Of a DNA stretch of 64,000 nucleotides, positions 2,418 through 47,258 are shown piece after piece. Origin of the DNA: an uncultured Erysipelotrichaceae bacterium (GTDB lineage: Bacteria; Bacillota_I; Bacilli_A; RF39; UBA660); the NCBI GenBank assembly GCA_902794075.1, contig CADBGE010000001.1, forward strand, positions 208,137 to 272,136, written 5' to 3'. Position 1 is the first letter of the stretch; the number at the start of each line of letters is the position of its first letter. The translations under genes were made by a program, and so were the position numbers. Below the pieces are notes generated by a model. That model made no database searches. It was not told the DNA's origin and was given only the letters and a program-made list of their open reading frames with translations.

Positions 2418-5400
2418 ATGGCCAAAACAGAAGATAAATCAAATAAATTATATGGCACAGGCGTTGGTGAAAATAATATTACTCCAACAACAAATAATTT
2501 AACAAATATTGGTTCAAAAATAACGTCATTAAATCCAGGTGATGAATATGCAATGATTGATGCGTTCAACATTGATTGGGAAAGCGGTGAATATAAATAT
2601 TCAGATGATAGTGATGATATTATTCATTCTACCGGTCATTTTGTTGAAATTGTTAAACAAAAGGCTGCCGAAGGCGGTGCTGATGTATGGGATGATATAA
2701 AAGTAAGTAATTATATAACTTCTCAAATAATTATTTATGCAACAAGTAATGTAAAAACACCACCTGAATGTGATTTTTCTGGTGAACCAATAAACATAAA
2801 TAATTATGATAAACAAGTTTATGCTAACCTTCCTGAAGGGTGGGTAGAATCATTAGACAATGTTGAAAGTAATTATTATGTATTCCAAACATCTGTTTAT
2901 GAGGTAAGAACATTAAATAATGAACGCATAGGTTATCATGAGCCAATTGGTGAAGTGATTTATTTACTTGGAGAAAATGGTATAAATGGCAATTTTAAGA
3001 GTACTGTATTTTGTAGAACAAATGAAACACCTGTTGCACCAAAACAAGGAGCATATTACAATACGGGGCTTCCGAGTGACATAAAAGTATATAGAGATAA
3101 TAATAGTTCACAAGAATCAGAAATATCTAACGCAGAATGGTCAGACGGTATTCCAGAAGGTCAAGAAATTCTTTGGGCATCAACAGCTATAATTTCAGAT
3201 AATAATGGAAGTGAAGATGAGACGGCAGTTTGGACTACTCCAAGACAAATGACTGATACTGCCACATATGACGTTGAATTTTCACCTTACTCTAACTCAA
3301 ATAATACTGCCCCATTGACACTTCCATCAGATAACGATAATGAAAATGGAAATAGACATAATACTTCTCTTTCAAGAAATCAACGTTGGTTTGATTTAAC
3401 ATTAGATAATGAATTACGAAACGGGATAAGTAATGTTGATGAAAATGGACAAATTCCTATATCTGGAGGCAATAAGCCAACTTGGAAATCTATGATTTGG
3501 CGTGCTGAACGTGAGTGTATAAATGGCGTTTGGTCTAATTGGACAATAAGTAGAATTAAAGGTGAGCAAGGAACTGCTGGTATTAAGGGAGATTTTAAAT
3601 CAACTGTATTTAAGCGTTCTGAAAATATGCCTGACCGTCCGTCTGATAATGACGGTACCTATAACAATCCTGTTCCAAGTGGTTGGTCTGATGGTATTCC
3701 TAATGGAATAGGTCCAGTATGGTCAACATGGAGAACATTTAGTGTGAATGACAATAATTCTAGTTGGACAACACCGACACTTGTTGCTGATACTCCAACT
3801 TATGATGTTGAATTTAGTCAATTACAATCAGAATACGGTAATCCAACAGACAACCCAAATAACTGGTTTGATCCCACAAAAGATACATTACCAGAAGACA
3901 TAACATGGGAAGACATGATTTGGCGTGCTGAACGTAATCGAGCAACATCTCAGGATGAATGGTCAGAATGGGTAATCACAAAAATAAAAGGTGAAGATGG
4001 TACAATAGGTTTAAATTCTCCATACTTTGAACAACGTTGGGGTGTATTTGATAAAACAATTACTCCAACAGCACCAGATAATAATGCTATAACATTAAAT
4101 ACAGATCACACTACTTGGAAACTAACTCCACAATATACTCCAGGAAAGAACACATGGATGACTGCTCGTAAAGTTATTTATACTATTAACAATAATGAGC
4201 AGTCTGCTCAATATGATGAAGATTCTACATGGAGTACACCAATGCGTATGTCTGGAGTTGATGGAGTTTCTCAACCAATACAACCCGTACTTAAATATCA
4301 ATGGACAGCTTCTAACATAGTCACACCTCAGTTAGATCAGAATGGAAATACTGAAAATCCTGGAAATGCATGGAAAGAAGCACCAGGAAATCCCACATCA
4401 ACAAATAAATATCTTTGGATGATTCAGGGCCAACGTCAAAATGGTTCAATGATAACTTGGGATGCTAATTCAGATGAAACAGTTGGAACTAATGAATATT
4501 GGACGTCACCTGTTTGCTTAAGTGGAGCCGATGGTCAACCAGGTAAAGATGGAGATGATTTAGAATTCATATATCATGTGTATGATGAAGTGCCTGCATT
4601 CAGCAATGATAACAATAATCCAGCATATTGGGAAGTTAGTTCACAAGATAATTATTTAGGACCAGAAAATAACAAATGGAATAATAATCCAACTGGTGTT
4701 ACTATAACAGATAAATATGAATATTGTTCATATCGTAGAAAAACAGGAAATCCAAAGGCTTGGACAAAATTTAGCATGCCATTTCCTTGGTCTATATATG
4801 GAGAAAACGGTATAGATGGAGACGGAGTCGAATACATATATGCAGTTACTCCAACAGATACAGCACCAACTCAACCAGAAATAACTTCAGACAATTATAC
4901 ATCATCACAACAATCAGAATGGGGCGTTGATGAAAATATTAATGGAGTTATATGGCATGATGATCCACAACAATTAAATAATGAAAACCAAAAATATCAA
5001 TGGGTATCAGTAAGAAAATATAGATATCCAAAACAAAATGAAACGCTTGGTGGTAATGCATTAGATCATAATAAGAAATATTGGTTTAATTATTCAACAC
5101 CGCAACTTTGGAATTGGTATATAAATAACGGTACAAATGCTCCAAGAATTGTGATGGCATATAAACGTACAAGTTCAAACGATATATCATCATTATATTC
5201 TGTTGGAACAACAGATATTCTTTATCCTAATGATGGACATATATGGATAAGCGGTGAGCATAGTTATGATCAAAATTGGTGTGAAAGCCCAGGAAACAAT
5301 ACACAAGATACTGGTGATGAATTTCTATGGATGATTCAAGCATATTATACAAATGTTGAAAATAATGTCCGCGCAAATGGTGGAACATTTAATAAATATA

Positions 5401-8400
5401 CATTAGAAGGATCATGGTCAACACCAATATGTCTAACAGGCGAACCTGGGCATGAAGGTGAAGATGGTTCTGATATAGAATTCATATATTATAGAACTGC
5501 TGATGATAATAAAGTGCCAACAGTTCCTGATTCAGAAAATTTTGAGGACGGACAGTATAATGAATCAGATTGGCCATTTGTCAATCTAAAAAGAACTCAT
5601 GATGAAATAACTAATTCATCAGTTTTTGATTCAACAATAACTAAAGATGGAATAAAATATTTGATTAATGACAATAAATATGATATTCTTGAAGATGAAA
5701 CAATATATAATAGTTATTCTGATAATTTTACACAAATACCATCTGACATGCTTCATGATGTTTGGACTGACAATCCTCTTGGTGTAACATCAACATATGA
5801 TTATGAATATGCAGCAGTTCGTAGAAAACCTGCTGGAAGTAATTCGCAATGGGGTGAATTTTCACCAGTGTTCCTGTGGTCAAAATATGGTGAAGACGGT
5901 GTAGACGGTGATGGAGTTGAGTATATATATTATTTAAGTTCAGATGAAAATGAAGTAACATTTGATGCATTATCAGAAACAAGTAATAATTCATCAAACA
6001 ATCCAGCAAATTGGGAAATTAGTCAAAATCCAGAATATATAGCAAATAATGGATGGACTGATGATCCATCAGGAGTTTCCATAGATAATAGATGGGAATA
6101 CGTATCTGTCCGTCATAAAAGATTTGATGCAGAATCTAATACTACAACATGGGGTAAATATTCTGAACCATCGCTTTGGGCTCATTTTGCAGTAGACGGA
6201 CTTGCAACAAATCTTGTTCTTGAATCAGATAATGACAATATAACTGTTGGTATAACAAGTGAAGGAACTATAAATAATAATTATAGTGATTCAGTTAATT
6301 TTACTCTTGTATTTAATACAAGGCCACTTAATTTAGATACTGACTATACATTAAAAATTTTAACTGAACCAACACCATCTGGTGAAAGTAATTATAATCC
6401 ATTTGGAACAAAAACAGATACTACAATACCGTTTAATAATGATTTATTCCAAGGAAATTTCGCATCTTTAACAAATAACACATTAACAGTCAATATACCT
6501 GAAGGTTTTGACATGAGTCAATATGATTACATTATGTCTATAACTCTTGAGGCAAAAATTATACGAAACGATATTGATGGATTAGAAATAGATACTCCAG
6601 CAATATTTACATTAAAAATATCTGGTGTTGAACTATCAATTAATGACATATATAAGTTAAATATTGATAGACAGGTTATTAAATTAGACCCAAATGATCA
6701 GAAATATGATACTTTAAACATAAGTTTAAAATCGTTAACAAGTGTTAATTCTATAACAGAAAACAGTGAAGCAACAGATAAACATTTATATATAAGATAT
6801 AATATTTCTGAAAGAAACAATATAGATCCTGATGGTAATTTAATAAATGTTAATAATTATTATATACCAATTGGCGATTATACTCCAGATAAACATTATA
6901 ATAAGCATACATTTAGATTATATTATATATTAGATGATAGCTTTTTTGATGAACCTCGTTTTGATTATAAATTAACAGACAATGTATTAAATGCGCATGG
7001 TGCTGTATTATTAGACACTGAAACAATATCTGCTGTATGGGATGGCGCTAATGGTAACCCAGGAACTGATTCTAAATCACAAGAATATATATATTTTGTA
7101 ACAGATGACATATCTTATTTTGAAAGCGGAAATCACGCAAACATAAATCCAAATAATTGGGATACACACGAAAATGTTATCATAAATAATGTATCGTATT
7201 ACGCATATCTTACAGATGATTTTCCGTTTGTCAATGGACAAACTACATATCTTGGATGGGAAGATACTCACATAGGAATTAGTGAAGAACATCCATATCA
7301 GTTCATGTCCACTCGTGAATATAACACAACAACTAAAGAATGGGGTAAGTTTAGTTCTCCAGAATGTTCTCACAATTGGGGACACTCTGGTGAAGATGGA
7401 GATGGAGTTGAATATATCTATTATTTAAATGATTCTGCAACATTTAATGGTGATAAACCACAGACATGGTATAATGATACTAACTATCAAAATTCTGAAT
7501 ATATAAAAACAAATACAAATTGGACTGATAATCCATCAGGTGTTTCAGAAAATAAAAAATATGAATGGATTTCTGTTCGTAAATATAAATATGAATGCCC
7601 ATCAGATATACTATGGAATGCTATATTAAAAGAGGGAATATACAATGTAGACGAATGGCAAAAATTTGAAAATGATTTTAATATAAATAGTTATAATACA
7701 AAACAAGCATTTACATCGAAATATGAAGAAGAGGGCAGTCCAATTTCATTCCAGGATGTAGGAAACGATAATAGTAATATAAAACAATTTTTAGAAGATA
7801 ATCATGCGTTTTCTGATGGAAATCCATTTTGGGAAGCAATAAAATATGTATATAAATTATTTAGAACATATGATGAATTAGAAAATGTATTTAATCATAC
7901 AAAAAATAAAATATGGTCGCAATATTCAGAACCAACTCTTTGGGCAAAATATGGGGGAAAAGGTGCCACTGGAGATACTGGTGGTTCAGGGTTAACTTTT
8001 GATTTTGACAATCCAAGTATTCAGATTGCTGTAAATAGTAATGGAAAGATAAAAGATTATCAAGAAGTTACAACATATTTAAATGTTTATGAAGGCGCTT
8101 CAAAAATTTCTGCAAAAGATATAACATTATCCATAATTTCTAATGGTACTCATGATGCATTTGAACATTCATATAGTGATACTGATAAATATGGATATAC
8201 ATTATTTAACAGTAATAGTAGTAACAATGGAACATCAACATATTATACTTGGAAAATTGGTGATGTAGATATTGATAATATTGGAAATAATAATATTGTA
8301 CAGCTCACAGAAAATTCAAGTATAGAATTTAATATAAGTTATAAAGGCAATGATTATGTAAAGCGCGTTTCATTAGTTCCAATCAAATATGGTGAAGATG

Positions 8401-11400
8401 GGGCAAATGCTGTTGTGTTTGATTTATATTGTCCTACGTCAGTAATTCATTATAATGCAATGGATAACACTCCATCGTTTAACCCAACTACTATATCTGA
8501 CATAAAGGTTAGAAAAATAGAAAATAGTAATGTTGAATATAAAATTACTGAAGGAAATAATGAAAATGAAAATGGATTTTCAATAAGTTATTATATGGAA
8601 TTTCCATTAGCTACTTCTCAAGCAACAGGCGGAAATGCTGGTGAAATTGGAGGAAGTATAGTTAGACCAAAGTCATCACCACAAATGGCAGCAAAAAATA
8701 TTTCTGGCTACATATATAATGAAACATTAGATATTAATGACAAAATAAATAATGCTTTAAACGATGATAAGAACTATGATATTCCTAAAACAGTAAAACT
8801 TTCATTATATCATACAGAAAGCGATACTACAGCATTATGGGATGAAACAGATCTTGAGATTATATATGATGGCATAAATGGTGTTGACGGACGATATGAA
8901 GAATATATTTATTATTGTCCACAAAACTCAAATCAAATAAATTGGACAACAATAAATGATGCTTTGAATCCTACAACATGGGCAGCAAATTCAACAAATA
9001 AAGACAATGAAAAACTTTCCGATGTTGATGATTTCATTAAGTCAGGTCAAGAAGAAAATTGGTATGACCATCCAACAGGCGTTGATGAAACACATGTGTA
9101 TGAATATTTTGCACATCGTACATTCAATAAAACAACCGGTAAATGGAACATTTATGATACGGTAGGAATATGGTCACATTGGGGAAGTGACGGTAAAGAT
9201 GGCGATGGTGTTGAATATATATATGCTGTTGGAAATAATTCAGATTGGAAAACAGCAATAGGGTGGAGCGATGGAGCTATACAAAATGCAGATAGAGACC
9301 CAAGAAGATGGATTTTGTTTAAAGGTGGAAATCAATCAACATTATCTACAATAGCTTGGAACGACAATTATCAAACAACAGAATATCATAGAACAGATTC
9401 AAATTTTTCAACAGTATGGGAAGATGACCCAATTAAAAATTTATCTGAAGGTTATTATCAATTTTGTTCAACAAGAAAATATAAATTATTAACGCAAGAA
9501 TACGTTAATAACATAACTATATCAACATTACAATCAGAATTTGGATTTATATCTATAGAATCAACACAAGAAAAATTAAATACTGTTAAATCAATTTTAT
9601 CGTCATATATTGGACAAAAAATATGGCTCCCATATTCCGAACCAACTATTTGGTCAAGTAATATACCTGGGCAGCCCGGGCAAAAAGGTGCTGATGCAGT
9701 AGTATTAGATTGGACAAATGACCAGATTAATTTAGCTGTTGATGAAAATGGAAAAATATATAATGGTGTTCCACAATATAAATCAACAACATTAAAATTA
9801 TTAAATTCAGGTAATGATTTAACAATAACTGATTTAAACTGTTATGGCGATAATGATTATTTTGAAATTAATCTAACAAACTCAGCCGGAGGAGAAGGTG
9901 ATACAATTGAAGTTAATGATAAAATAAACATATATTCATCTTACTCAGAAAGTGATAAAGATTTTACAATAAATATTTCTATTGCTAGTAATTTTAATGA
10001 AGACATAACAATTCCTGAGAATGGTTTAGAAGTAACATTTACTGTTACATTATCTAATAGTAAAACATTAACAAAGGTACTTAAAATCTGTGGTCAACAT
10101 ATTCCAAGTGACGGTATTAATGGACAAAACGCCGTTACTTATGAATTAGATGTTACACCAAATTCATTATCATATTCATCTTTTTCACCAAATGTAAATG
10201 TTACGATAAATGTATTAAAATATAATGGAACATCTGTAACGAGATTAAGTACATCAGAAGACTTTGGCGCAAATAATATATATTTTACAACATCATTTTA
10301 TGATATAACGTTTGAACATACTGTAGTAGACACATATAATCAATCAAATTCTAAATCAATACCTAAAACATTTAGAGGACGAGATATTTATAATACAGGA
10401 TATGTTGTAATTAAAATGTATTATAAAAATGATGGAACTTATATCCAAATTGATTCAGAAACAATACCTGTGATTTGTGACGGTGAACAAGGTGCTCAAG
10501 GATTTACTGGACCTGTTGTTAGAAACTGTGGAGAATATTCTCACTCAAGAAAATACGGTAATGGCAATTATAATAAATCTAATGCTGGACCACAATATGA
10601 TGAAACTTCAATATTATATAAAGATATTGTATCATATACAAATAGAATAGGTACAAAATTTTATACTCCTTCAACATCAACAACATATATAACAGAAACA
10701 AATAATACATATCTATGTAAAGGAAGTGCATATATTGTTGGAACATATCCTGCTCCACCAAATACTAATTCAATAAATACGGGTTGGACAGTAGCTACTC
10801 AGTTTGATTTCATTGCCACAAAACTTCTATATGCTGACCAAGCGTTGATTAACCAAATATCAACACATGATTTGATTGCTACTAATAAGGATGGTTATCC
10901 TGTTGCAGGTGTAACCAGTGGTTCAAAGATGTACGATAAGAATAACAATGAAATTACATCATATCTTTCAACACTTGGAACAGTAAATTATTCAGAAAAC
11001 GCCGTATCATCTCAGAATGATCCGTCAAATGTTCGTATCTTTGCTGGAGAAATATGGGATGGTAATAATTCATATTCATTAACATATGCGCCATTTAATG
11101 TTCGTCAAGACGGTACGGCATATATGAGTAAAGCTATTATTGAAGGTACTGTTACAGCTAGTAATTTAAAACTTAAAGAAAATGTAAATGCAAATACGCT
11201 CGACCAAAAAGGTTCGTTTACATATTGGGATATATTAAATGGAGACAGATACGTACCGAATCTTAATGAAGGTGAGGTTGGTTTATACTATATATTATCA
11301 ATATATGGAAATAGTAATAGTAATATACATATAAAAACACCATATCCAGGAAATGGTATTCCACGTAATGCATTCTTTAAAAAATCAATAAATGGTAAAT

Positions 11401-11885
11401 CTGTTTTATCTGATGATGCTTATTACATGAGGCCTCCAAAGAATACATTATGTCAATTAGTTGGAATCAATGCAGATAATATAACATATTGGAATATTAT
11501 TGAGACACCATTAGCAGAACAAAAAATACCAGATACAATTCTTGAGCATTATGATTGTACAGATGATGTAATTTTATTTGCATATAACTTAGGAGATTAT
11601 TATACTAAAAATAATAATGGAAATGATGTTAAAATAAGTTATTTATGCACACGAGCAGATGATTATGATGGTTTTCTGCCAATACGTAGAGTTACCTTTG
11701 AAGGCGGAAACGGAACTGATGCGGACGATGTTTGGGTAGAATATACTTTTTTAACATATTTACAAAGTGATTCATCTAAACATACTACTAATGGCGCATA
11801 TGCTAATTTGGGTTTTTTGAGATATGTTAAGGATGAGTATAAGTCTTGGCGACCAGAAGGAGAATCAGTAAATCCAAATTCATAA
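2418..11885 (+). CDS. Giant (3155 aa) repeat-containing virion protein, putative tail fibre / adhesin
   Basis: Single uninterrupted ORF. About 10 iterations of W(S/T)xP...G(E/A)DG.DG.GVEYIY(Y/A): short collagen-like Gly-X-Y runs followed by an EYIY strand, e.g. YGENGIDGDGVEYIYAV, YGEDGVDGDGVEYIYYL, GADGQPGKDGDDLEFIYHV. The C-terminal region resembles fibre tips. Confidence 0.8.
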   Translation: MAKTEDKSNKLYGTGVGENNITPTTNNLTNIGSKITSLNPGDEYAMIDAFNIDWESGEYKYSDDSDDIIHSTGHFVEIVKQKAAEGGADVWDDIKVSNYITSQIIIYATSNVKTPPECDFSGEPININNYDKQVYANLPEGWVESLDNVESNYYVFQTSVYEVRTLNNERIGYHEPIGEVIYLLGENGINGNFKSTVFCRTNETPVAPKQGAYYNTGLPSDIKVYRDNNSSQESEISNAEWSDGIPEGQEILWASTAIISDNNGSEDETAVWTTPRQMTDTATYDVEFSPYSNSNNTAPLTLPSDNDNENGNRHNTSLSRNQRWFDLTLDNELRNGISNVDENGQIPISGGNKPTWKSMIWRAERECINGVWSNWTISRIKGEQGTAGIKGDFKSTVFKRSENMPDRPSDNDGTYNNPVPSGWSDGIPNGIGPVWSTWRTFSVNDNNSSWTTPTLVADTPTYDVEFSQLQSEYGNPTDNPNNWFDPTKDTLPEDITWEDMIWRAERNRATSQDEWSEWVITKIKGEDGTIGLNSPYFEQRWGVFDKTITPTAPDNNAITLNTDHTTWKLTPQYTPGKNTWMTARKVIYTINNNEQSAQYDEDSTWSTPMRMSGVDGVSQPIQPVLKYQWTASNIVTPQLDQNGNTENPGNAWKEAPGNPTSTNKYLWMIQGQRQNGSMITWDANSDETVGTNEYWTSPVCLSGADGQPGKDGDDLEFIYHVYDEVPAFSNDNNNPAYWEVSSQDNYLGPENNKWNNNPTGVTITDKYEYCSYRRKTGNPKAWTKFSMPFPWSIYGENGIDGDGVEYIYAVTPTDTAPTQPEITSDNYTSSQQSEWGVDENINGVIWHDDPQQLNNENQKYQWVSVRKYRYPKQNETLGGNALDHNKKYWFNYSTPQLWNWYINNGTNAPRIVMAYKRTSSNDISSLYSVGTTDILYPNDGHIWISGEHSYDQNWCESPGNNTQDTGDEFLWMIQAYYTNVENNVRANGGTFNKYTLEGSWSTPICLTGEPGHEGEDGSDIEFIYYRTADDNKVPTVPDSENFEDGQYNESDWPFVNLKRTHDEITNSSVFDSTITKDGIKYLINDNKYDILEDETIYNSYSDNFTQIPSDMLHDVWTDNPLGVTSTYDYEYAAVRRKPAGSNSQWGEFSPVFLWSKYGEDGVDGDGVEYIYYLSSDENEVTFDALSETSNNSSNNPANWEISQNPEYIANNGWTDDPSGVSIDNRWEYVSVRHKRFDAESNTTTWGKYSEPSLWAHFAVDGLATNLVLESDNDNITVGITSEGTINNNYSDSVNFTLVFNTRPLNLDTDYTLKILTEPTPSGESNYNPFGTKTDTTIPFNNDLFQGNFASLTNNTLTVNIPEGFDMSQYDYIMSITLEAKIIRNDIDGLEIDTPAIFTLKISGVELSINDIYKLNIDRQVIKLDPNDQKYDTLNISLKSLTSVNSITENSEATDKHLYIRYNISERNNIDPDGNLINVNNYYIPIGDYTPDKHYNKHTFRLYYILDDSFFDEPRFDYKLTDNVLNAHGAVLLDTETISAVWDGANGNPGTDSKSQEYIYFVTDDISYFESGNHANINPNNWDTHENVIINNVSYYAYLTDDFPFVNGQTTYLGWEDTHIGISEEHPYQFMSTREYNTTTKEWGKFSSPECSHNWGHSGEDGDGVEYIYYLNDSATFNGDKPQTWYNDTNYQNSEYIKTNTNWTDNPSGVSENKKYEWISVRKYKYECPSDILWNAILKEGIYNVDEWQKFENDFNINSYNTKQAFTSKYEEEGSPISFQDVGNDNSNIKQFLEDNHAFSDGNPFWEAIKYVYKLFRTYDELENVFNHTKNKIWSQYSEPTLWAKYGGKGATGDTGGSGLTFDFDNPSIQIAVNSNGKIKDYQEVTTYLNVYEGASKISAKDITLSIISNGTHDAFEHSYSDTDKYGYTLFNSNSSNNGTSTYYTWKIGDVDIDNIGNNNIVQLTENSSIEFNISYKGNDYVKRVSLVPIKYGEDGANAVVFDLYCPTSVIHYNAMDNTPSFNPTTISDIKVRKIENSNVEYKITEGNNENENGFSISYYMEFPLATSQATGGNAGEIGGSIVRPKSSPQMAAKNISGYIYNETLDINDKINNALNDDKNYDIPKTVKLSLYHTESDTTALWDETDLEIIYDGINGVDGRYEEYIYYCPQNSNQINWTTINDALNPTTWAANSTNKDNEKLSDVDDFIKSGQEENWYDHPTGVDETHVYEYFAHRTFNKTTGKWNIYDTVGIWSHWGSDGKDGDGVEYIYAVGNNSDWKTAIGWSDGAIQNADRDPRRWILFKGGNQSTLSTIAWNDNYQTTEYHRTDSNFSTVWEDDPIKNLSEGYYQFCSTRKYKLLTQEYVNNITISTLQSEFGFISIESTQEKLNTVKSILSSYIGQKIWLPYSEPTIWSSNIPGQPGQKGADAVVLDWTNDQINLAVDENGKIYNGVPQYKSTTLKLLNSGNDLTITDLNCYGDNDYFEINLTNSAGGEGDTIEVNDKINIYSSYSESDKDFTINISIASNFNEDITIPENGLEVTFTVTLSNSKTLTKVLKICGQHIPSDGINGQNAVTYELDVTPNSLSYSSFSPNVNVTINVLKYNGTSVTRLSTSEDFGANNIYFTTSFYDITFEHTVVDTYNQSNSKSIPKTFRGRDIYNTGYVVIKMYYKNDGTYIQIDSETIPVICDGEQGAQGFTGPVVRNCGEYSHSRKYGNGNYNKSNAGPQYDETSILYKDIVSYTNRIGTKFYTPSTSTTYITETNNTYLCKGSAYIVGTYPAPPNTNSINTGWTVATQFDFIATKLLYADQALINQISTHDLIATNKDGYPVAGVTSGSKMYDKNNNEITSYLSTLGTVNYSENAVSSQNDPSNVRIFAGEIWDGNNSYSLTYAPFNVRQDGTAYMSKAIIEGTVTASNLKLKENVNANTLDQKGSFTYWDILNGDRYVPNLNEGEVGLYYILSIYGNSNSNIHIKTPYPGNGIPRNAFFKKSINGKSVLSDDAYYMRPPKNTLCQLVGINADNITYWNIIETPLAEQKIPDTILEHYDCTDDVILFAYNLGDYYTKNNNGNDVKISYLCTRADDYDGFLPIRRVTFEGGNGTDADDVWVEYTFLTYLQSDSSKHTTNGAYANLGFLRYVKDEYKSWRPEGESVNPNS

Positions 11886-13787: not shown

Positions 13788-14303
13788 TTATTTGTCATAT
13801 TCACATGAATCATATTTGAAAACTATATCTGTGTCATTATATGAATTACTTTCATATGCATTAAAGATTTTGTCTAATGTTTCATCGATATTATCTTCTT
13901 CCTCAATCATTAGTTCAAACTTTGAAAACATCATTTTAAATCTTAGTTTTGTCAATCTAAAAGTAACAATTTTTGATTCATCAGGTGCATCTTTTCCAAG
14001 ATTATCGTCATATATTATATCAACAATGTCTTTCTTATAATCAAGTCTTTGAAAACTATCATATTCAAAATAAGCATCATTAATATATTTTACATTATTT
14101 CTAAAATACTTCTTAGCAATGTCTTGATTACTTGGCATCTGTTCTAATAATAGATCATCTATATATTGATGAATGTCATCTTCTTGAAAAGTCTCAGGAC
14201 AGTTAATAAGAATTTCATCTTTATTGCAGTTATATGTAACTTCAAGATTATTTATTGATTTCTGTTCAAATGCTTCTTTTAAATATGTAACTAAGTTTTT
14301 CAT
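13788..14303 (-). CDS. Hypothetical protein with CTS-like N-terminus (MKNLVTYLKE)
   Basis: ATG-start ORF of 171 aa. N-terminal decapeptide matches the MK.L..Y(I/L).E family signature. Confidence 0.6.
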   Translation of the reverse strand: MKNLVTYLKEAFEQKSINNLEVTYNCNKDEILINCPETFQEDDIHQYIDDLLLEQMPSNQDIAKKYFRNNVKYINDAYFEYDSFQRLDYKKDIVDIIYDDNLGKDAPDESKIVTFRLTKLRFKMMFSKFELMIEEEDNIDETLDKIFNAYESNSYNDTDIVFKYDSCEYDK

Positions 14304-14615
14304 TTAGATTTCTGTAATTCTTTTTCTCTCAAGTTCCTTTTGAACTGAAGCCCTAAGCCCATTGCTTTTGTATGTGTTATTCCAAAAATTATTTGAATCT
14401 TCTAATGAATACCAAAATTCCAATGAATCTGGTTCTGATGTATTTGTTGCTCGAGGCTTAAAAAGATATGCATAATCAATATCCTTTAATGTCTTAAGAG
14501 TATCTAATGCCTCTGATCTTGACTTTACTAATTTTCTATCAATACTTCCGTTTTTTGTTCTATATTCAAGATCATACATATTTATACTTTCTAAAAATTG
14601 TTTTAATGTTTTCAT
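14304..14615 (-). CDS. Hypothetical protein with CTS-like N-terminus (MKTLKQFLES)
   Basis: 103 aa. 4-nt ATGA overlap with the upstream sigma-like gene indicates translational coupling. Confidence 0.6.
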   Translation of the reverse strand: MKTLKQFLESINMYDLEYRTKNGSIDRKLVKSRSEALDTLKTLKDIDYAYLFKPRATNTSEPDSLEFWYSLEDSNNFWNNTYKSNGLRASVQKELERKRITEI

Positions 14616-17044: not shown

Positions 17045-17063
17045 TTATAATGAATATGTGTAT

Positions 17064-17095
17064 AGAGTGGGTTAGCGATAGCTCACTCTTTTTTA
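17064..17095 (+). terminator. Rho-independent terminator after gene 16556-17044
   Basis: AGAGTGGGTT-AGCGAT-AGCTCACTCT hairpin (10-bp stem including 2 G-U pairs) followed by TTTTTT. It lies inside the ORF-track N-terminus of ORF 17050-18033, showing that start is wrong. Confidence 0.65.
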
Positions 17096-17109: not shown

Positions 17110-18033
17110 ATGATAAGTTTAATTGATTACATAAAAAGCATTACGACTTCAAAACATAGAAATGTATTCAATGAATCGTATGAAGAATTTTATAATAAAA
17201 CTAATAAGTCATATGATGAATACATTGAATCGTTTTATAAAAACAAAGAAATGTGTAGACGATTTAACTTTGATGTTGATGATGAATCATATGAAAAACA
17301 AATACAAGATTTATATGAAACATTATTAAGTTCTAGTTCAAATGATTATTTTATAGATTGTTTTAAACAACGATTTAGAAATGATTTTGTTCGAGCAGAC
17401 ATACCATCGTATATAGATAATCAAAAAGTAGACGGATGCGTTAAACTAAAAGTCAAAAAATCATTTGATGAAGAATCTGAACGGTTCAAAAGTTTTCTAA
17501 ATGTACATAATTATTATATAGTTAAGATTGATGAAGAAATAGCATATAAAATTATATATGTTGAACGATACATACAAGACAATTACACAAATGAAGTATA
17601 TGAAACATATAATGGAATATTATATCATGTGACAACAAAAAACAAAAAAGATAAGATATTGAAATTTGGATTACATCCTAAAGGAAATGAATATGAAAGG
17701 TCACATGTAAATTTAATTGGATTGGGAAATAAAGATGTGAAACATCCAAAAAGATTATATTTCTTTGCAAACAAAAAACATAGTGAAACACTATATAGAA
17801 CATTGCATAATAATATTGATGAAATATGTGTTTTAAGAATAGATTTAAAGAAATATAAAAACACAATAAGATTTTTTAGAGATGATTCATTTTCTGACTT
17901 AAGATCAATATTCACGTATGAGCCAATACCTCCATATTGCATAAGTGAAGTTAACAACACGAATGTTCTTATGAATAATGACATATTCATATCATTCGTA
18001 AATAAAATAAAGAAACTTTTTAAGATTTATTAA
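17110..18033 (+). CDS. ADP-ribosyltransferase-fold (Tpt1/KptA- or PARP-like) domain protein with CTS-like N-terminus (MISLIDYIKS)
   Basis: Corrected start at ATG 17110, downstream of the terminator. Motif YNGILYHVTTKNKKDKILKFGLHPKG...RSHVNL resembles the Tpt1 LYHGT...I...GL.P..R.HVHL pattern. Paralogous to 58033-58773 and 61847-62755. Confidence 0.55.
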   Translation: MISLIDYIKSITTSKHRNVFNESYEEFYNKTNKSYDEYIESFYKNKEMCRRFNFDVDDESYEKQIQDLYETLLSSSSNDYFIDCFKQRFRNDFVRADIPSYIDNQKVDGCVKLKVKKSFDEESERFKSFLNVHNYYIVKIDEEIAYKIIYVERYIQDNYTNEVYETYNGILYHVTTKNKKDKILKFGLHPKGNEYERSHVNLIGLGNKDVKHPKRLYFFANKKHSETLYRTLHNNIDEICVLRIDLKKYKNTIRFFRDDSFSDLRSIFTYEPIPPYCISEVNNTNVLMNNDIFISFVNKIKKLFKIY

Positions 18034-18036
18034 TAA

Positions 18037-19788
18037 ATGATACATTTTAAATTTTCAGAAAACGACACAAGATATGTTTTTCTAAAATGTGATACTAAAC
18101 TTGATGAAGTGAACATAGGAAATTTAATTAAACATATCAATCTTGTGGATCCTATATGCTATCTTCCTACATATAAGGGTATACCATATACACAAGACTT
18201 CATATGGAAATATGTTAAAAAAGATGGTAGAAAGCTGTGGTATGCTGCGATTGGAATGACACAACCAATCATTGAGTTTTTCAAAGCAAATGGCATAGAA
18301 TATGATGGAATAGAATCACATTATTTCAAAAGACGAATGATTCATACGTTTGAGGAGTTTACTGATATTGTTGATTCATGGAACTTAAAATATAAACCAC
18401 GCCCATACCAATATGAAGTAGCATACAAAGTATTAACATATTATCAATCATTAAGCATAGCAGCAACAAGAGCGGGAAAGACACTTATTAGCTATATTGT
18501 GTTCAGATATGCAATGGAATACTTAGGCGTTAAGAAGATACTTATGATAGTTCCAAGCATTGACTTGGTAAAGCAAGGGTATAATGACTTCAGTGATTAT
18601 GCAGAATTCTTTAAGACAGAATGCGTATGGGGTGGAGGAAAGTTAGTTGAGTCATCTAATCTTACTATAGGAACATTCCAAAGTCTAATTAAGTTCTTAG
18701 ATAAGAAGTCAAAGAAGTATAATCCACACTTCTATGATGACTATGATTGTGTGTTCGTTGATGAAGTTCATAGAGCGACTGCAGCTCAAACTAAGACAAT
18801 CATTAGTCAACCATTCATGAAGACTGCAAAGATAGTGTTTGGTATGACAGGAACATTGCCAAAGGAGCACACGATACCTCGGTATGTACTTCATAGTTTG
18901 CTTGGAAGTAAGATTCAGGAAATTACTCCAAGAGAACTTATGGATGCAGGATATATAGCAAATGTAGACATAAGACAGATAAGACTGAACTATAGTAATG
19001 TTGATGAGCAGAAGAAGCTCTGGATACGATGCGCAGAATATGCACTTTCAGATTTCATGTATCAGAAGAACGAAAAGACGGGAAGAAACGAAAAGATTAA
19101 GCTACCTAATGGTAAGTTTCTGTTGCAGAACATGAAGAAACTTCCGTCAGGCATACAGATAGCAAAGGAAAGGATCTATGAAAGAATGGGTGAGTTTGCT
19201 GCAGAGGAATCCTACATAGAAATGCTTAAGGGAACTATCAAGGAAAGTACAAAGAGCAATCTCCTACAGATAGAAAAGATGATGGTTCACTTTATGAAGC
19301 CACGTATCAAATTCTTATTAGACGACGTCATTCCAAAGTGCAATCATAACACTATTCTATTCTGTCATCATACAGAGTACTTACGATATGTTGAACAAAA
19401 GCTCAAAGAAACATTCCCGGAACGCCACATAGCAAGTATTAGTGGGGCAGTTGGTAGTAAAAGACGAGATGAGATTAAACAGATGCTAAAGGATTATAAT
19501 GATTGTATTCTTGTAGCTAGTTATGCATGTGTTGGAACAGGATTGACATTAAACAATTTATGTTACGGAATATTGTTTGAGAGCTTCAAGTCCGAGGTTA
19601 TAAACATGCAAAGTATCGGTAGAGGCCTGGGATTGTCAGACATGCGCGATACTTTCATATTGTATGATATTATTGATGTGTTTGATAAGAATGTACTAAG
19701 TAATAAACTATTCCTTCAGGGTCTTGCAAAGATTAAGATATACCAAGAAAACAAATATGCATATCATATAGAGAACATTAATCTATAA
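18037..19788 (+). CDS. SF2 DEAD/DExH-box DNA helicase (UvsW/Rad25-like)
   Basis: Motif I ATRAGKT, motif II VFVDEVHRA, motif III MTGT, motif VI QSIGRGLG. Confidence 0.8.
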   Translation: MIHFKFSENDTRYVFLKCDTKLDEVNIGNLIKHINLVDPICYLPTYKGIPYTQDFIWKYVKKDGRKLWYAAIGMTQPIIEFFKANGIEYDGIESHYFKRRMIHTFEEFTDIVDSWNLKYKPRPYQYEVAYKVLTYYQSLSIAATRAGKTLISYIVFRYAMEYLGVKKILMIVPSIDLVKQGYNDFSDYAEFFKTECVWGGGKLVESSNLTIGTFQSLIKFLDKKSKKYNPHFYDDYDCVFVDEVHRATAAQTKTIISQPFMKTAKIVFGMTGTLPKEHTIPRYVLHSLLGSKIQEITPRELMDAGYIANVDIRQIRLNYSNVDEQKKLWIRCAEYALSDFMYQKNEKTGRNEKIKLPNGKFLLQNMKKLPSGIQIAKERIYERMGEFAAEESYIEMLKGTIKESTKSNLLQIEKMMVHFMKPRIKFLLDDVIPKCNHNTILFCHHTEYLRYVEQKLKETFPERHIASISGAVGSKRRDEIKQMLKDYNDCILVASYACVGTGLTLNNLCYGILFESFKSEVINMQSIGRGLGLSDMRDTFILYDIIDVFDKNVLSNKLFLQGLAKIKIYQENKYAYHIENINL

Positions 19789-22840: not shown

Positions 22841-23785
22841 TTATTTTTTCTCAAGTTCTTTAATTCTTTCCTCTAATTCAGTAATCTTATTTATTAATTT
22901 ACTAACAACTAATGACAAAGAAGAATTATAATCAACAGATTTAACATTATGTATTTCTCCAGAATTATCGGAAGATGTAGTCACAAGTTCAGGATGCATT
23001 TTTTCTAAGTCTTGAGCAACAAATCCATACATATGAGAACCATTCATATTGAACTCATACATATTTATTTCGTCAATGTTCGCAATCTTTTCAATATCCG
23101 TTTTTAATCTTTCATCAGAATTCTCCATGAATTTTGGAGCAACAATCTGACCAGAAGTGCTGTTGGCTTCTAAAGATATTTTATTATTTGGACCAATTCT
23201 AACATAAGTATATGATACACTACTGCTGACATTAAAGTGTAATCCATCAACATTAGTATAATCATTTATAGATATACCTGATCTTGACAAAATTGCTTCA
23301 GGGTATGTTTGTATAAATCCTTGTGAACCACCAATTGTAATAGATCCTTTGTTCCATCCTATGGAAGAATTAGTTATATGTAATCCATCTATATTTCCTG
23401 AATATTGACTCCAATGAATTTCTTGGTCAGTATCGACTTTATTTGAACCGCTCTTTGAAACATAATTAGATATTTGAGAAGAAGTTGATTCAACAGCATC
23501 AAGGCGAGAATTAAGAACAGCCAATCCAATTGCTGTTGTCTGTTCATTCTCAATCATCTTTGTGTATATAACTTTATTCTGAACAGGATTAGTTGAAGTA
23601 TTGTTTAGTGTATCGTCAACTTTAACATGTCCATATGCTGTAGTTGATGCATGAATATTATGATCATTCCATGCTTTTGTAAGAGATTTAGTTGTGCCAT
23701 TATCATTAATTTGAACTAATCCTGCATAAGTAATTGGAAGCAATATGTCACTACCATTTTGTAATTTAATTGGATATGTTGCCAT
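22841..23785 (-). CDS. Tail fibre with C-terminal intramolecular chaperone (peptidase S74-like) domain
   Basis: N-terminal IKL.NG..LLPIT anchor motif shared with the other fibres. C-terminus ...SDERLKTDIEKI....MYGFVAQDLEKMHPELV... matches the endosialidase-type self-cleaving chaperone domain. Confidence 0.75.
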   Translation of the reverse strand: MATYPIKLQNGSDILLPITYAGLVQINDNGTTKSLTKAWNDHNIHASTTAYGHVKVDDTLNNTSTNPVQNKVIYTKMIENEQTTAIGLAVLNSRLDAVESTSSQISNYVSKSGSNKVDTDQEIHWSQYSGNIDGLHITNSSIGWNKGSITIGGSQGFIQTYPEAILSRSGISINDYTNVDGLHFNVSSSVSYTYVRIGPNNKISLEANSTSGQIVAPKFMENSDERLKTDIEKIANIDEINMYEFNMNGSHMYGFVAQDLEKMHPELVTTSSDNSGEIHNVKSVDYNSSLSLVVSKLINKITELEERIKELEKK

Positions 23786-40863: not shown

Positions 40864-43800
40864 ATGTTAAAATATTATAATAAAATCAAAGAAAATAGCA
40901 AATATAATTTAAATCATTTTATGGTGAATAATTCATTATCCAAATCATTAGGTACATATTTAAAACAAATTTCTGACAAGTATAAGAATAAAGAAAATGG
41001 CGACTTAACAGGAATCTTAAGTTCCTTTAGTCAAATGAGTAAAGATTATTCGGAATTCACAAACACTAAGCAGGATGAATTCGCATATTCAAATTATGAA
41101 TATTCTAAATGTAGTGAAGTTGAGAAAAAAGATTTTATAAATCAACAACTACAGTTCATTGAATGTCTTGTTCTTGATAATATATATAATATGTCAGGAA
41201 CTATTCGTAATTGGTATGAAATTTATTCATTGATGACAAATAAGTTATATAAGAACGTTGAGAAGAAAAATCGTAAAGTCATATATTCTTGTACTTCAAC
41301 ATCACGTCCTGTAGGAGAAAAGTCTTATATGACCTGGAATGGATTTCAGATTATAGACCTTGATATTAAAAATTCTAAATTGTCTGATGATTTAAAACCG
41401 TTATTATTTAATGAACTATGCAAATATAATTGGTTTCTTGGTGTATATAAATCGGCATCAGGAAAAGGACTTCATATATGGACAAAGATAAAGCCACTTT
41501 CACTTGACCAAAGAGGAAAACGTATTGAATACTTATGTAATTTCCGTCATAAATATTCTTATGTATATATAGTATTATTAAAATACGCATCAAAATTTAA
41601 CTACACAAAGGATGACATTTTGCAGTATATGGATATGGCAATGGCAAAACCGCAGCAAGGATCATTCATATCATACGACAATACTGCTTTGATGTCGACT
41701 AATTTTAAAGATTTTAGACTTGATGTAAATTTTGAAAGTTCAATCACAAATGGTATAGAAACTATTGATTGGATTGCCCATCCTGATTTGAAGATGATTT
41801 TTAGAAAACTTGATTGGTTTGCAAATGAATCATTTGACAAATCTTCTAATGTTGATGTGTCTGACATTGAGGAAGTCTCAAACAGAGATAAGAAAAAGTC
41901 AAATGGACGTAAGCACTATAAACATGCTCAACGATGGCAGATTGCAAACACTCTTGTTTCTATATATGGAGAGAAAAAGGCACTTGATTTAATTATAGAA
42001 ATATGTAAAGATACTCCGTATCGCGAGTTGGCAGGTGACATTAGAACTGCAAGTATTCATAATAAGCCAATTTCTATATGGGCTATAAAAGAACTAAATG
42101 CGCAACATGGTTTTAACATTAAGATAAATAATACGAATATATATAGTGATGAATTAGAAGAAATTGAGAAAAAGATGTCTGAAGATGCATCAAACTTAGA
42201 TGATCCAACTCGTGTTCTTAATGATTCTACTGTTGCTACTACTATATATATAAAAAGTAATCAATATCTTTCTGATGTGAAAGATCAGATATTGGAAAAT
42301 TTATCACATATTACATTGCTTGAAGCCGGCGCAGGATATGGAAAGACTGAAATGATTAAAGCGTTCAAAGCTAAGACATTACTTATTCTTCCATTTACTT
42401 CAACAATTAAAGCAAAAGTAGAATCAAGTGAGACAACAAAAGATTGGTTATATTTCTATGGAAACAAAAGACCAACACTTGACAATATATTTGATAATAG
42501 ATCTATGACTATGACAATTGATAAGTTCTCAAGACTAAATATTATGGAACTTAATCAAGCAGGATTTGATTATATAGTTGTGGATGAAAGCCACTTATTG
42601 TTCACAAGTTCATATAGGGATGTCATGAGTCCTGCCATTCAAAGACTTGCGAATAGTTCTGCAAAAGTAATTATGATGACAGGAACTCCTACAGGTGAAA
42701 TGCTGTTTTTTCCAAATATTAGACATATAAAGGTCATAAAGGAAGACACACGAATAAAACAATGCACCGTTCATACATACCCATATAAACTTGAGACATT
42801 TTATAGAATGTGCGAGATGATGGCAAATGACATCATTAATGGTTATAAAGTATTATATCCATCAAATAAAGGAAATTTATATTTTGAGACTGTCACAGGA
42901 TTCATTCAGTACATATTAAATAATTCTAAAGATAAAGATACAGGAAAACCAATATCTCATAAGTTAAAGGCATTTTATTATAAAAAATCAAACTATGGTG
43001 AGGAAAGTATGGAAAACATAAATATCAATAAGACTTATGGAGATAATGACATCATATTCTGTTCAAGTTATTTAAGTGTTGGTGTTGATATTTGTGATGA
43101 CAAGACTTTCTCAATATATTTTACGGATCTTATGATTCCGCAGGACATTGAACAATATGCAAACCGACTTCGTAATAATGACTTATTTATTCATATAATG
43201 CTACCAAGAAATGATGATGATGGTACACCAATAAGATATGACATTGTGAAGCCTCTTGATCTTAACTTTGATGAAGCTGATTTATTGTTTATACGAGACT
43301 TATTAAGAACAATGAATGATATGCTCGAACGTAATTCCGAAGAATCAAAATATTCACCAATTCTTAGTTCAATTCTTGCAGCACATAAGGCACTGAAATA
43401 TGATGAAAACGAATGTAAATATTATATAGATGAAACAACATATAAATTAAACATTTTTGAAGAAAGATATAATGAATATTCTAAGCAACTTAAGGTATTG
43501 ACAAAAGGATTACGTTATTATGGATACACAATAGACTTTGACAATAATGAAAAAGTAATGACAGAAAGTGGACGAGCATATATTGAAGATTTTAAAAGAA
43601 CTTGTAGAAATATAAAACATAATGCAGATACAGCAAAGACATTTGAACTTCTTGACCATATTAATGATGAGAACATTGAAATATATAAAGAATTTATGAA
43701 AGGTTCATATGAAATATTCAGGGCTCCGGAATATTCAGAAGAACGAATAAGTAATAAACTATTTGTGAAGGACATTGAAATAATTGGAAAGAATATGCCA

Positions 43801-44598
43801 ATCATCATCTCATTATATAAATTCTATAATATTGATACTATAAAAGACATATATAAGTTTTGTGTTAATTATAGATCAAATGCTATCAACTATACTCAAC
43901 TTAAAAGAATTAGACAGTTCATTAAAATTGAAGCAAATAGAAGATATAAGAGAGTTGATTTTCCTGTCATAAAATTTATTAATGAAGCAAAAAAGTTCGC
44001 GACAGATAATTCATCAACTAATCAGTCAGCAATTGATATGTTCCTTGCTGATTATGCAACAAGATATGCAAACTCAATTAAAGATGTCGTCGTTGAAGAC
44101 CTTCAGTATCATCAATACATTTATGAATTAGTTAGAGAACTTTGGAAAGTCATAATCGTTGAGACTAAATCAAGAAAAGGAAGTATAAATATAAAGCCAT
44201 TTGAATTGTTATGGGAGGAAAAAGATAAGACAAAGAATTTATTTGGTGATGAAATGACACAACAGTTCTTCTTGGTTGATGAACTTATGGAAAACATGAA
44301 GGATGAAAATGGAAATATATTGAATATTGATAAAGTCGTTGATGAAAGTGAAACTGAACAAGAATTTGAACATACTTCAAAGAAAAGAATTTCTGACATT
44401 AAAAATGAAATTCCAACAATTGTTCATAGTGATTTTGATTACGAAAAGTATTCAGAACTTGATGGATCTAATGAACGATTCATCCGTAAACAGAAAAACA
44501 CAAATCATTTGGTTGATAGTGTGTTTGCAATGGAAGAACGTGATAATGATTTAAGAAATGCTGAACTAAAAGAAATGACATTATTTGATGAAGAATGA
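40864..44598 (+). CDS. AEP-family primase (PrimPol-like) fused to a DExH helicase, replicative primase-helicase
   Basis: N-terminal AEP motif I FQIIDLDIK (hhhDhD) and motif II SGKGLHIW (sG.G.H). Downstream Walker A GAGYGKTEM and Walker B/DExH IVVDESHLL. 1244 aa. Confidence 0.75.
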   Translation: MLKYYNKIKENSKYNLNHFMVNNSLSKSLGTYLKQISDKYKNKENGDLTGILSSFSQMSKDYSEFTNTKQDEFAYSNYEYSKCSEVEKKDFINQQLQFIECLVLDNIYNMSGTIRNWYEIYSLMTNKLYKNVEKKNRKVIYSCTSTSRPVGEKSYMTWNGFQIIDLDIKNSKLSDDLKPLLFNELCKYNWFLGVYKSASGKGLHIWTKIKPLSLDQRGKRIEYLCNFRHKYSYVYIVLLKYASKFNYTKDDILQYMDMAMAKPQQGSFISYDNTALMSTNFKDFRLDVNFESSITNGIETIDWIAHPDLKMIFRKLDWFANESFDKSSNVDVSDIEEVSNRDKKKSNGRKHYKHAQRWQIANTLVSIYGEKKALDLIIEICKDTPYRELAGDIRTASIHNKPISIWAIKELNAQHGFNIKINNTNIYSDELEEIEKKMSEDASNLDDPTRVLNDSTVATTIYIKSNQYLSDVKDQILENLSHITLLEAGAGYGKTEMIKAFKAKTLLILPFTSTIKAKVESSETTKDWLYFYGNKRPTLDNIFDNRSMTMTIDKFSRLNIMELNQAGFDYIVVDESHLLFTSSYRDVMSPAIQRLANSSAKVIMMTGTPTGEMLFFPNIRHIKVIKEDTRIKQCTVHTYPYKLETFYRMCEMMANDIINGYKVLYPSNKGNLYFETVTGFIQYILNNSKDKDTGKPISHKLKAFYYKKSNYGEESMENININKTYGDNDIIFCSSYLSVGVDICDDKTFSIYFTDLMIPQDIEQYANRLRNNDLFIHIMLPRNDDDGTPIRYDIVKPLDLNFDEADLLFIRDLLRTMNDMLERNSEESKYSPILSSILAAHKALKYDENECKYYIDETTYKLNIFEERYNEYSKQLKVLTKGLRYYGYTIDFDNNEKVMTESGRAYIEDFKRTCRNIKHNADTAKTFELLDHINDENIEIYKEFMKGSYEIFRAPEYSEERISNKLFVKDIEIIGKNMPIIISLYKFYNIDTIKDIYKFCVNYRSNAINYTQLKRIRQFIKIEANRRYKRVDFPVIKFINEAKKFATDNSSTNQSAIDMFLADYATRYANSIKDVVVEDLQYHQYIYELVRELWKVIIVETKSRKGSINIKPFELLWEEKDKTKNLFGDEMTQQFFLVDELMENMKDENGNILNIDKVVDESETEQEFEHTSKKRISDIKNEIPTIVHSDFDYEKYSELDGSNERFIRKQKNTNHLVDSVFAMEERDNDLRNAELKEMTLFDEE

Positions 44599-46712: not shown

Positions 46713-47258
46713 TCAATCGTTATACAATATAATGATTTTAAATTTTTCTATATTGTCAACATCAAACTTTCCTCTCTTAAAAAGTGATCTTCCTATTATA
46801 TACATCAGCACATCATCATCTTTTATACGAATAAGCTGTACGTTGTTCTTTGATGCTCGAGAATTTGATTGAAACAACAATTCAGATAAATCTTCTTCAT
46901 TTGCAATAGTAATAATTTCTTTCAACATTTTATTCTTCCCATAATTGTCAGGGCGATACTTATGATACCATAATAATTTGATATGATCATATTCATTAAT
47001 GTTATTTATTATTTCATCAGCAAAATTAAGTAATCTATTGGTAACACCTCCATCTTTATCTGTGACCCATAGCCAGGTATATTGGATTGCATCTTTTGAA
47101 ACTTTCGCATCAATATTTTGCGGATCACACCATATTTTCTTTGCAAGTTCCAATAATTGACTTGCCGTATCTATGTAATCTTTGTTGATAATTAATTTTT
47201 CATCAAATCGTTTATTGATGATAAGACGTTCTTCTATATGCTGAGACAATGATTTCAT
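46713..47258 (-). CDS. Hypothetical protein with CTS-like N-terminus (MKSLSQHIEE)
   Basis: 181 aa. The N-terminus carries the family signature followed by the (E)KLIINK(D/N)(Y/F) second motif shared with 47255, 50630 and 54273. Confidence 0.6.
   Translation of the reverse strand: MKSLSQHIEERLIINKRFDEKLIINKDYIDTASQLLELAKKIWCDPQNIDAKVSKDAIQYTWLWVTDKDGGVTNRLLNFADEIINNINEYDHIKLLWYHKYRPDNYGKNKMLKEIITIANEEDLSELLFQSNSRASKNNVQLIRIKDDDVLMYIIGRSLFKRGKFDVDNIEKFKIIILYND

Follow-up and report, generated by a model that had tools for sequence, protein, structure and literature searches.

Three diverged open reading frames (ORFs), P1, P2 and P3, lie dispersed in a 64,000-nucleotide stretch of DNA that is assigned to an uncultured Erysipelotrichaceae bacterium (GenBank assembly GCA_902794075.1, contig CADBGE010000001.1, positions 208,137 to 272,136; the whole stretch is called the window below, and coordinates refer to it, with the strand as + or −). 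The locus raises the question of what chemistry their products carry out and how these products reach their target. We found that P1 to P3 are members of a large metagenomic family of two-domain phage proteins that was previously unannotated. Their C-terminal ~120 residues very probably adopt an ADP-ribosyltransferase (ART) fold, as judged from the models, and their first ten residues resemble the capsid targeting sequence of phage T4.

P1 (17110-18033, +; 307 residues plus stop) is the most divergent of the three paralogs and P2 (58033-58773, −; 246 residues plus stop) the most compact, while P3 (61847-62755, −; 302 residues plus stop) is P2-like with an insertion of ~30 residues between the two domains. 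BLASTP comparisons showed that P2 and P3 share 40% identity (E-value of 2e-42) and P1 and P2 26% (2e-10), and that P1 also matches P3 (3e-7). When the 290 six-frame ORFs of the window were searched with the family profile, P1, P2 and P3 were the sole copies, and the next match had an E-value of 0.38. The core motif reads LYHVT..ILKFGL in P1 and CYHFT..SILKNGLRCK in P2 and P3, and it contains the columns that are best conserved across the family. Over 202 family sequences, which served for all conservation counts below (lower denominators give the sequences covering a column), the core His is found in 197 and the core Gly in all 202. A first-pass annotation of this DNA had proposed the coordinates of the paralogs, their shared core motif and their N-terminal leaders, and all three points were confirmed. 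It had also described an (I/L)EFYGYY(I/L)SG module as N-terminal in P2 and P3; the module is present in both proteins, but at mid-protein (residues 101-112 of P2), and its counterpart in P1 is NVHNYYIVK. P1 furthermore lacks the E..L..HD motif of the N-terminal domain and has GLH in place of the family GLR, with the His, Thr, Arg, aromatic and Asp residues discussed below all kept.

No significant match was obtained for P1, P2 or P3 in Pfam, NCBIfam, PHROGs or PADLOC, where all matches were below threshold. A search with P3 as the query returned 66 clusters at 90% identity, all of them unnamed and free of Pfam domains, and some on contigs of 440 to 474 kb. The exhaustive profile search extended the family to 2136 representatives at 50% identity with E-values of 1e-3 or less, 845 of them at 1e-10 or less. 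Among 50,697 GenBank phage records, P1 matched Prevotella Lak megaphages only, with 25 to 31% identity, and a tblastn search with P2 gave no match. A degenerate DNA pattern for ILKNGLRCK had 22 matches in metagenomes, of which 13 were family members, and 16 matches in a one-genome-per-species set of bacteria and archaea, none of which was a family member; this is a hint, from one motif only, that cellular genomes lack the family. The N-terminal α/β domain, which spans approximately residues 40-123 in P2 (58405-58656, −), carries the family-conserved Glu46, Leu48, His51 and Asp52 together with the FYGYY strand, and its structural neighbours are ferredoxin-like domains.

The fold of the C-terminal domain was addressed with AlphaFold models built from a 64-sequence alignment. 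The P2 model had a predicted local distance difference test score (pLDDT) of 85 and a predicted template modelling score of 0.70, with low confidence at residues 1-20, and the P1 model had a pLDDT of 74. Tpt1 was the top structural match of the family models, and the fold matches of the P1 model ranked in the same order. A Foldseek search of the predicted viral structures in BFVD returned uncharacterised phage proteins, phage DarT, Tpt1/KptA domains of giant viruses and nidoviruses, and the 121-residue "putative RNA 2'-phosphotransferase" of phage PaBG, and T4 Alt, ModA and ModB were not among the top 50 matches. Profile alignments were made with hhalign against five genuine KptA sequences, from E. 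coli K-12 and four phages. The family C-terminal domain aligned with KptA residues 97-184 (probability 80%, E-value of 1.4e-5), and the full-length family profile aligned with the lobe at residues 94-181 only (probability 86%, E-value of 5.4e-6). The N-terminal domain was also considered as a homologue of the Tpt1 RNA lobe, and this was rejected on the restriction of the full-length alignment to KptA residues 94-181.

The top-ranked entries in a profile search of the Protein Data Bank (PDB) were likewise ARTs, namely DarT1 (E-value of 0.0011) and Tpt1 (0.009). By score, however, the family falls below the membership thresholds of both Tpt1/KptA (PF01885) and DarT (PF14487). The Pfam RNA 2'-phosphotransferase model (PF01885) matched only P2 among the paralogs (E-value of 0.006; 17.2 bits against a cut-off of 26) and matched 7 of 38 family members weakly, and the NCBIfam Tpt1/KptA model gave an E-value of 0.1 and 12 bits against a cut-off of 231. 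Pfam DarT (PF14487) matched 1 of the 38 members (0.003), and PADLOC DarT gave an E-value of 0.0024 and 15.8 bits across 28 residues. The ART domain is closest to the NAD+ lobe of Tpt1/KptA, with DarT next. It is an ART of the Tpt1/DarT branch with an active-site signature of its own, and represents a new family near Tpt1 and DarT that belongs to neither. The profile check against Tpt1 suggested by the first-pass annotation supports the reading of three diverged ART-fold paralogs that resemble Tpt1/KptA. The alternative label of that annotation, PARP-like, holds at the level of the superfamily and no closer.

In Tpt1 from Clostridium thermocellum, for which the R-H-R-R tetrad has been defined, the equivalent His and Thr form hydrogen bonds with ADP-ribose (PMC6333775). 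The hhalign alignment of the P2 ART domain (residues 124-246; 58036-58404, −) placed His140 and Thr142 on KptA His105 and Thr107, and Gly154-Leu155 on Gly119-Leu120. The His of this Y-H-x-T motif lies in the first core strand, at the NAD+-contacting position. Arg168 of P2, as well as Arg215 of P1 and Arg220 of P3, corresponds to KptA Arg125, the fourth Arg residue of the tetrad; this column is occupied by Arg in 185 of 201 sequences and by Lys in a further 15 (Arg or Lys in 200), and the residue two positions past it is aromatic in 195 of 200. In addition, an Asp residue (P2 Asp220, P1 Asp258 and P3 Asp275) is invariant (199/199); it adjoins a five-residue insertion relative to KptA and lies 8 residues upstream of the canonical catalytic Glu position. 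The column of the second Tpt1 His, in the "HVHL" strand, is occupied by Tyr, Phe, Ile, Leu, Trp or Val in the family. Only the fourth Arg of the Tpt1 tetrad is retained, because the remaining three residues belong to the winged-helix RNA lobe, which is missing from the family. The first-pass annotation was therefore right that the tetrad is not evident, and the mapping of catalytic residues that it called for aligned the H-x-T and the Arg with KptA H105-x-T107 and R125. Our guess from these conservation patterns is an active site in which the invariant Asp would have a role.

The codons of the candidate residues were checked in all three genes. They are His140 (58354-58356), Thr142 (58348-58350), Arg168 (58270-58272), Phe170 (58264-58266) and Asp220 (58114-58116) in P2 (−). 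For P1 (+), whose ART domain was delimited by family alignments and by hhalign to KptA at approximately residues 157-284 (17578-17961), they are His173 (17626-17628), Thr175 (17632-17634), Arg215 (17752-17754), Tyr217 (17758-17760) and Asp258 (17881-17883). The ART domain of P3 (−) covers residues 174-302 (61850-62236) according to the family alignment and conservation, with His192 (62180-62182), Thr194 (62174-62176), Arg220 (62096-62098), Tyr222 (62090-62092) and Asp275 (61931-61933).

Comparison with Tpt1/KptA (PF01885) showed further differences besides the absent winged-helix RNA lobe with the Arg-His...Arg of the tetrad. The family has an extra "Y-R-x-F-P" insert in addition to the five-residue insert beside the invariant Asp, replaces the second "HVHL" His by variable hydrophobic or aromatic residues, is fused to a different N-terminal α/β domain, and scores well under the threshold. 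Like Tpt1, however, it has no acidic residue at the canonical ART catalytic position. Compared with DarT (PF14487; E. coli DarT1, PDB 8baq, an ART acting on single-stranded DNA), it lacks the conserved catalytic Glu, has no DarG-type macrodomain among the flanking ORFs scanned, and is phage-encoded with an extra N-terminal domain and a leader. Small phage ARTs that resemble the Tpt1 lobe, such as the 121-residue PaBG protein and those of mycobacteriophages Barnyard and Tonenili, matched over the ART domain in Foldseek with E-values of 1e-4 to 1e-5 and also lack the Tpt1 RNA lobe. However, these proteins (~105 to 150 residues) are single domains without the N-terminal domain or the leader of the family, and no sequence similarity to the family was seen. 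In the arginine-specific T4 enzymes Alt, ModA and ModB, which belong to the R-S-E clade of ARTs, the first-strand residue is Arg, as opposed to His in the family.

The second question, that of delivery, is raised by the N-terminus. Among 103 complete N-termini the family consensus is M-K-[ST]-[LI]-x-[ED]-[YF]-[IL]-x-E, with Lys2 in 78%, Leu/Ile4 in 92%, Glu/Asp6 in 71%, Tyr/Phe7 in 78%, Ile/Leu8 in 89% and Glu10 in 33%; this decapeptide is conserved in the family, unlike the 20 to 30 residues after it. A position-specific scoring matrix (PSSM) was built from the family N-termini without the window copies and applied to all 996 Met starts of the window and of five related loci. The leader of P2, MKTLKEFINE (58744-58773, −), scored 19.3 and ends in I-N-E, a Glu-ended candidate site of the type that T4-like prohead proteases cleave, and those of P1, MISLIDYIKS (17110-17139, +; a degenerate form), and P3, MKRFTEYIRT (62726-62755, −; position 10 not Glu), scored 13.8 and 13.6. 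Phage T4 uses MKTYQEFIAE as its capsid targeting sequence (PMC8442874), and internal protein IPIII starts with it. The P2 leader is identical to this sequence at 7 of 10 positions, and its first seven residues match MKTFKEF of IPI at 6 of 7; the starts of T4 ipIII and ipI were confirmed by translating both genes. In T4, the internal proteins and the ART Alt carry a propeptide of 10 to 20 residues that directs them to the scaffolding core, and gp21 cuts after Glu (PMC5694885; PMC3012670).

The leader is not confined to the ART family. Eighteen ORF starts in the window and the five related loci had scores of at least 10, where shuffled sequences would give 0.15. Nine ORFs of the window that are unrelated to the ART family carry the leader, eight of them with scores of at least 10 and seven with [IL]-x-E at positions 8-10, and no common family was found among the nine beyond the leader itself. 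All nine are on the − strand: MKNLVTYLKE (13788-14303), MKTLKQFLES (14304-14615), MKSLSQHIEE (46713-47258), MKSLVKYINE (47255-47950), MKSLKQHLHE (50630-51136), MKSLITYINE (53926-54276), MKSLINYISE (54273-55073; 266 residues, with a DUF285 repeat domain at a Pfam E-value of 3e-52), MKSLVEYINE (55070-55453) and, as the weakest with a score of 8.7, MKNFKEHIIS (60593-61567; 324 residues, between P2 and P3). The codons of the leader vary synonymously among these ORFs, indicating that selection acts on the peptide and not on the DNA. By analogy with T4, the nine ORFs may encode a set of capsid-packaged cargo proteins. The T4 internal proteins resemble them in this respect, as unrelated proteins of one genome have just the leader in common.

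Some side observations concern these leader-bearing ORFs. Leaders of similar form occur at the related loci L001, L009, L011 and L042. A second motif, E[KR]L[IV]INK, follows straight after the leader and is sometimes repeated in the ORFs at 46713-47258, 50630-51136 and 54273-55073 (e.g., MKSLSQHIEERLIINKRFDEKLIINK), and it was also seen after the leader at L009 (15436-15753 and 15765-16094). The ORF at 54273-55073 matches stretches of very large PHROG families without known function. The product of 60593-61567 has an HExxH motif (LLHELMHAYE) and no family match, and may be a putative packaged metallopeptidase.

The lineage of the window bears on the comparison with T4. Directly downstream of P1 lies a UvsW-like superfamily-2 helicase gene (18037-19788, +), whose best match comes from an uncultured phage of 462 kb (LR756500.1); ~1800 T4-type phages match it as well. 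Together with the literature on Lak phages, these matches place the window in a T4-related lineage, as we infer; Lak-B8 has been assigned to the T4-related "group 2.2" of jumbo phages, whose members have a gp21-type prohead protease (PMC7824862). The P1 homologue of Lak-B5 (MK250024.1, locus L052, ~5920-6870) contains three in-frame TAG codons and yields a full-length family member only if these are translated as Gln (E-value of 3.5e-20 with the family profile), a pattern that agrees with the code-15 recoding of late genes. TAG recoding is thought to limit translation to late infection in recoded phages (PMC9523058), which is also the phase in which head cargo is produced. In the window, the T4 late-promoter motif TATAAATA was not enriched, with 28 matches against 20 expected.

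These observations can be combined into a tentative mechanism, to which we would give a little less than an even chance as a whole: the family would be NAD+-using ARTs of a new Tpt1/DarT-like type whose new N-terminal domain chooses the substrate, and at least the P2-type proteins would be packaged via a T4-like leader and injected. NAD+ would be bound through the conserved Tyr-His-x-Thr strand and the aromatic residue, and the active site would use the family-specific invariant Asp along with the conserved Arg, the counterpart of the fourth tetrad Arg that binds phosphate in Tpt1. The ADP-ribose would then be moved to a macromolecular acceptor. Because of the nearest relatives and the retained phosphate-binding Arg, this acceptor would most likely be a nucleic acid or a phosphate-bearing group and not protein Arg as for Alt. 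The N-terminal α/β domain, which takes the place of the Tpt1 winged-helix RNA lobe, presumably selects the substrate. Capsid packaging followed by injection, as for T4 Alt, is the best-supported mode of delivery on this analogy. The N-terminal decapeptide would act as a capsid targeting sequence, and P2-type proteins at least would be loaded in the prohead, cut after Glu10 by a prohead protease, injected with the DNA, and would act on the host as infection begins. Like the propeptides of T4 Alt, IPI and IPIII, the P2 leader is a short N-terminal segment ending in Glu, although packaging has been demonstrated for T4 and is only proposed for P1 to P3. The idea of the first-pass annotation that the paralogs are injected like T4 Alt is clearly strengthened by the leader, which is close to the T4 sequence and present on unrelated neighbours, but their ART clade is not that of Alt and the Mod proteins. 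ARTs are central weapons in the conflict between phages and hosts, and the presence of three copies with just 20 to 40% identity fits the diversification of a conflict effector.

Several observations, however, weigh against this mechanism. [LIVM]-x-E at positions 8-10 is present in only 32 of the 103 family N-termini (approximately one-third), and P1 and P3 have no Glu at position 10 and thus no Glu-ended cleavage site. In a test on 22 kb of T4 DNA, the PSSM ranked IPIII second and IPI third, behind the unrelated homing endonuclease segD; a high score is therefore indicative and not fully specific. In the Lak-B5 homologue, the leader-like segment starts ~8 residues past the first Met. No prohead protease was recognised in the 64-kb window, and a tblastn search with T4 gp21, which returned 2574 records, showed no Lak phages among the top groups listed. 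As for the chemistry, the column of the canonical ART catalytic Glu holds Ala, Ser, Thr or Cys and no acidic residue, and its neighbouring columns are unconserved. This column was aligned to "QA(A)ILVF" of DarT1 chain 8baq, where the wild-type residue is, we presume, the catalytic Glu of DarT1.

An alternative role, in RNA repair, would make P1 to P3 unpackaged cytoplasmic accessories, in which a Tpt1-like, NAD+-dependent phosphotransferase removes or caps 2'- or terminal phosphates of cleaved tRNA or other RNA together with RtcB and a HAD phosphatase. Examples of KptA-based RNA repair are on record for jumbo phages (PMC7824862, PMC9503650), the best structural match is Tpt1, and the NAD lobe keeps the phosphate-contacting Arg. 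The window also contains both partners, a HAD_SAK_2 "Swiss-army-knife" phosphatase (59984-60568, −; E-value of 1e-21) flanked by P2 and P3, and an RtcB ligase (51814-53034, −; Pfam E-value of 8e-57). However, the family lacks the entire RNA lobe and three of the four residues of the essential tetrad, every Tpt1 model score is far under its threshold, and a single enzyme would be expected instead of three diverged copies, while the conserved leader would be left unexplained. Moreover, a tblastn search of the flanks of 12 other family loci found no homologue of RtcB, HAD_SAK_2 or other window neighbours, the one exception being a neighbour present in a near-identical relative. As P1 also sits apart from the repair genes, 34 kb away, the linkage to RNA repair looks incidental. 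Canonical KptA, 2H and macro domains were not seen among the scanned ORFs of the window. These data weaken the earlier proposal that the paralogs act with RtcB, and we regard a repair function as quite improbable. We also consider it unlikely, if less so, that P1 to P3 are unpackaged effectors made after infection, either DarT-like ARTs acting on bases of host DNA or RNA or NAD+ glycohydrolases that deplete or reshape the NAD+ pool, with the leader being the first helix of the fold. DarT1 is indeed the best sequence-profile match in both the PDB and PADLOC, and multi-copy, fast-evolving ARTs are common in jumbo phages (PMC9503650). However, the catalytic Glu column of DarT is Ala or Ser here, and a Pfam scan of flanking ORFs found neither a macrodomain nor a NADAR partner, the unscanned neighbours being only 64 to 83 residues long. 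Furthermore, a helix intrinsic to the fold would not be expected on nine unrelated ORFs of the window.

The missing canonical catalytic acid could also mean that P1 to P3 are inactive ART-fold proteins, for example decoys binding NAD+ or ADP-ribose, or structural internal head proteins, and the loss of family-conserved residues in P1 (GLR to GLH, and the absent E..L..HD motif) would be in line with this. Tpt1 itself, however, is functional without a catalytic Glu, and the His, Arg, aromatic and invariant Asp residues are kept in a family that is otherwise ~25% identical, which argues for a selected active site; inactivity seems to us about as improbable as a repair function. The injected NAD+-using ART thus remains our favoured reading. 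It can be extended to the view that Lak-like gut megaphages put a T4-type leader on a large and varied cargo, with at least 12 of ~90 genes in the 64-kb window, and that P1 to P3 would be a new injected class of enzymes with a Tpt1-type NAD+ lobe, a new substrate domain and a His/Arg/Asp site, ADP-ribosylating a host nucleic acid or phosphorylated target as soon as the DNA enters. We know of no phage ART for which such a combination of chemistry and delivery has been described. This extension is speculative and on balance doubtful.

It was already known that jumbo phages can have several fast-evolving ARTs and that ARTs can be packaged (PMC9503650). Novel aspects are the family as such, the arrangement of its domains and the signature of its active site, along with a T4 capsid targeting sequence that a Lak-like gut megaphage appears to reuse on many of its proteins. 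The family has more than 2000 clusters at 50% identity in metagenomes that are invisible to Pfam, NCBIfam, PHROGs and PADLOC, and it joins the NAD+ lobe of an RNA-phosphate-directed enzyme to a new domain. If active, it would extend the range of reactions known for ARTs of the Tpt1/DarT branch. To our knowledge, T4 Alt is the only well-studied packaged ART. Should the leader prove to be a genuine capsid targeting sequence, it would provide a simple sequence rule to list the injected proteome of uncultured gut megaphages, and the T4 packaging signal would be conserved across a very large evolutionary distance.

The window has 30% G+C, the standard code and a high coding density, and its 60 long ORFs end in TAA (40), TGA (16) or TAG (4). 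A terminator-like hairpin with an 11-bp stem followed by TTTTT (17064-17089, +) lies between the upstream gene and the start of P1. We placed this start at 17110 and not at the upstream ATG at 17050 because 17110 aligns with the family N-terminus and the hairpin sits inside the extension. A sigma-70 scan around P1 gave matches at background level only. A full-length DnaK (HSP70; E-value of 1e-193) is encoded at 48632-50548 (−) and a DnaJ at 45577-46650 (−); in Lak-B5, DnaK-like and DnaJ-like ORFs are also found ~4 to 6 kb upstream of the P1 homologue (L052, 315-2334). The 314-residue product of 22841-23785 (−) has a Peptidase_S74 intramolecular chaperone domain (E-value of 2e-9), which also occurs at the C-termini of tail fibres and spikes, indicating that structural genes occur in the window. 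A single ORF of 3155 residues spans 2418-11885 (+). The 1244-residue product of 40864-44598 (+) combines a weak BT4734-like N-terminal domain with a DEAD/ResIII helicase core and may be a primase-helicase.

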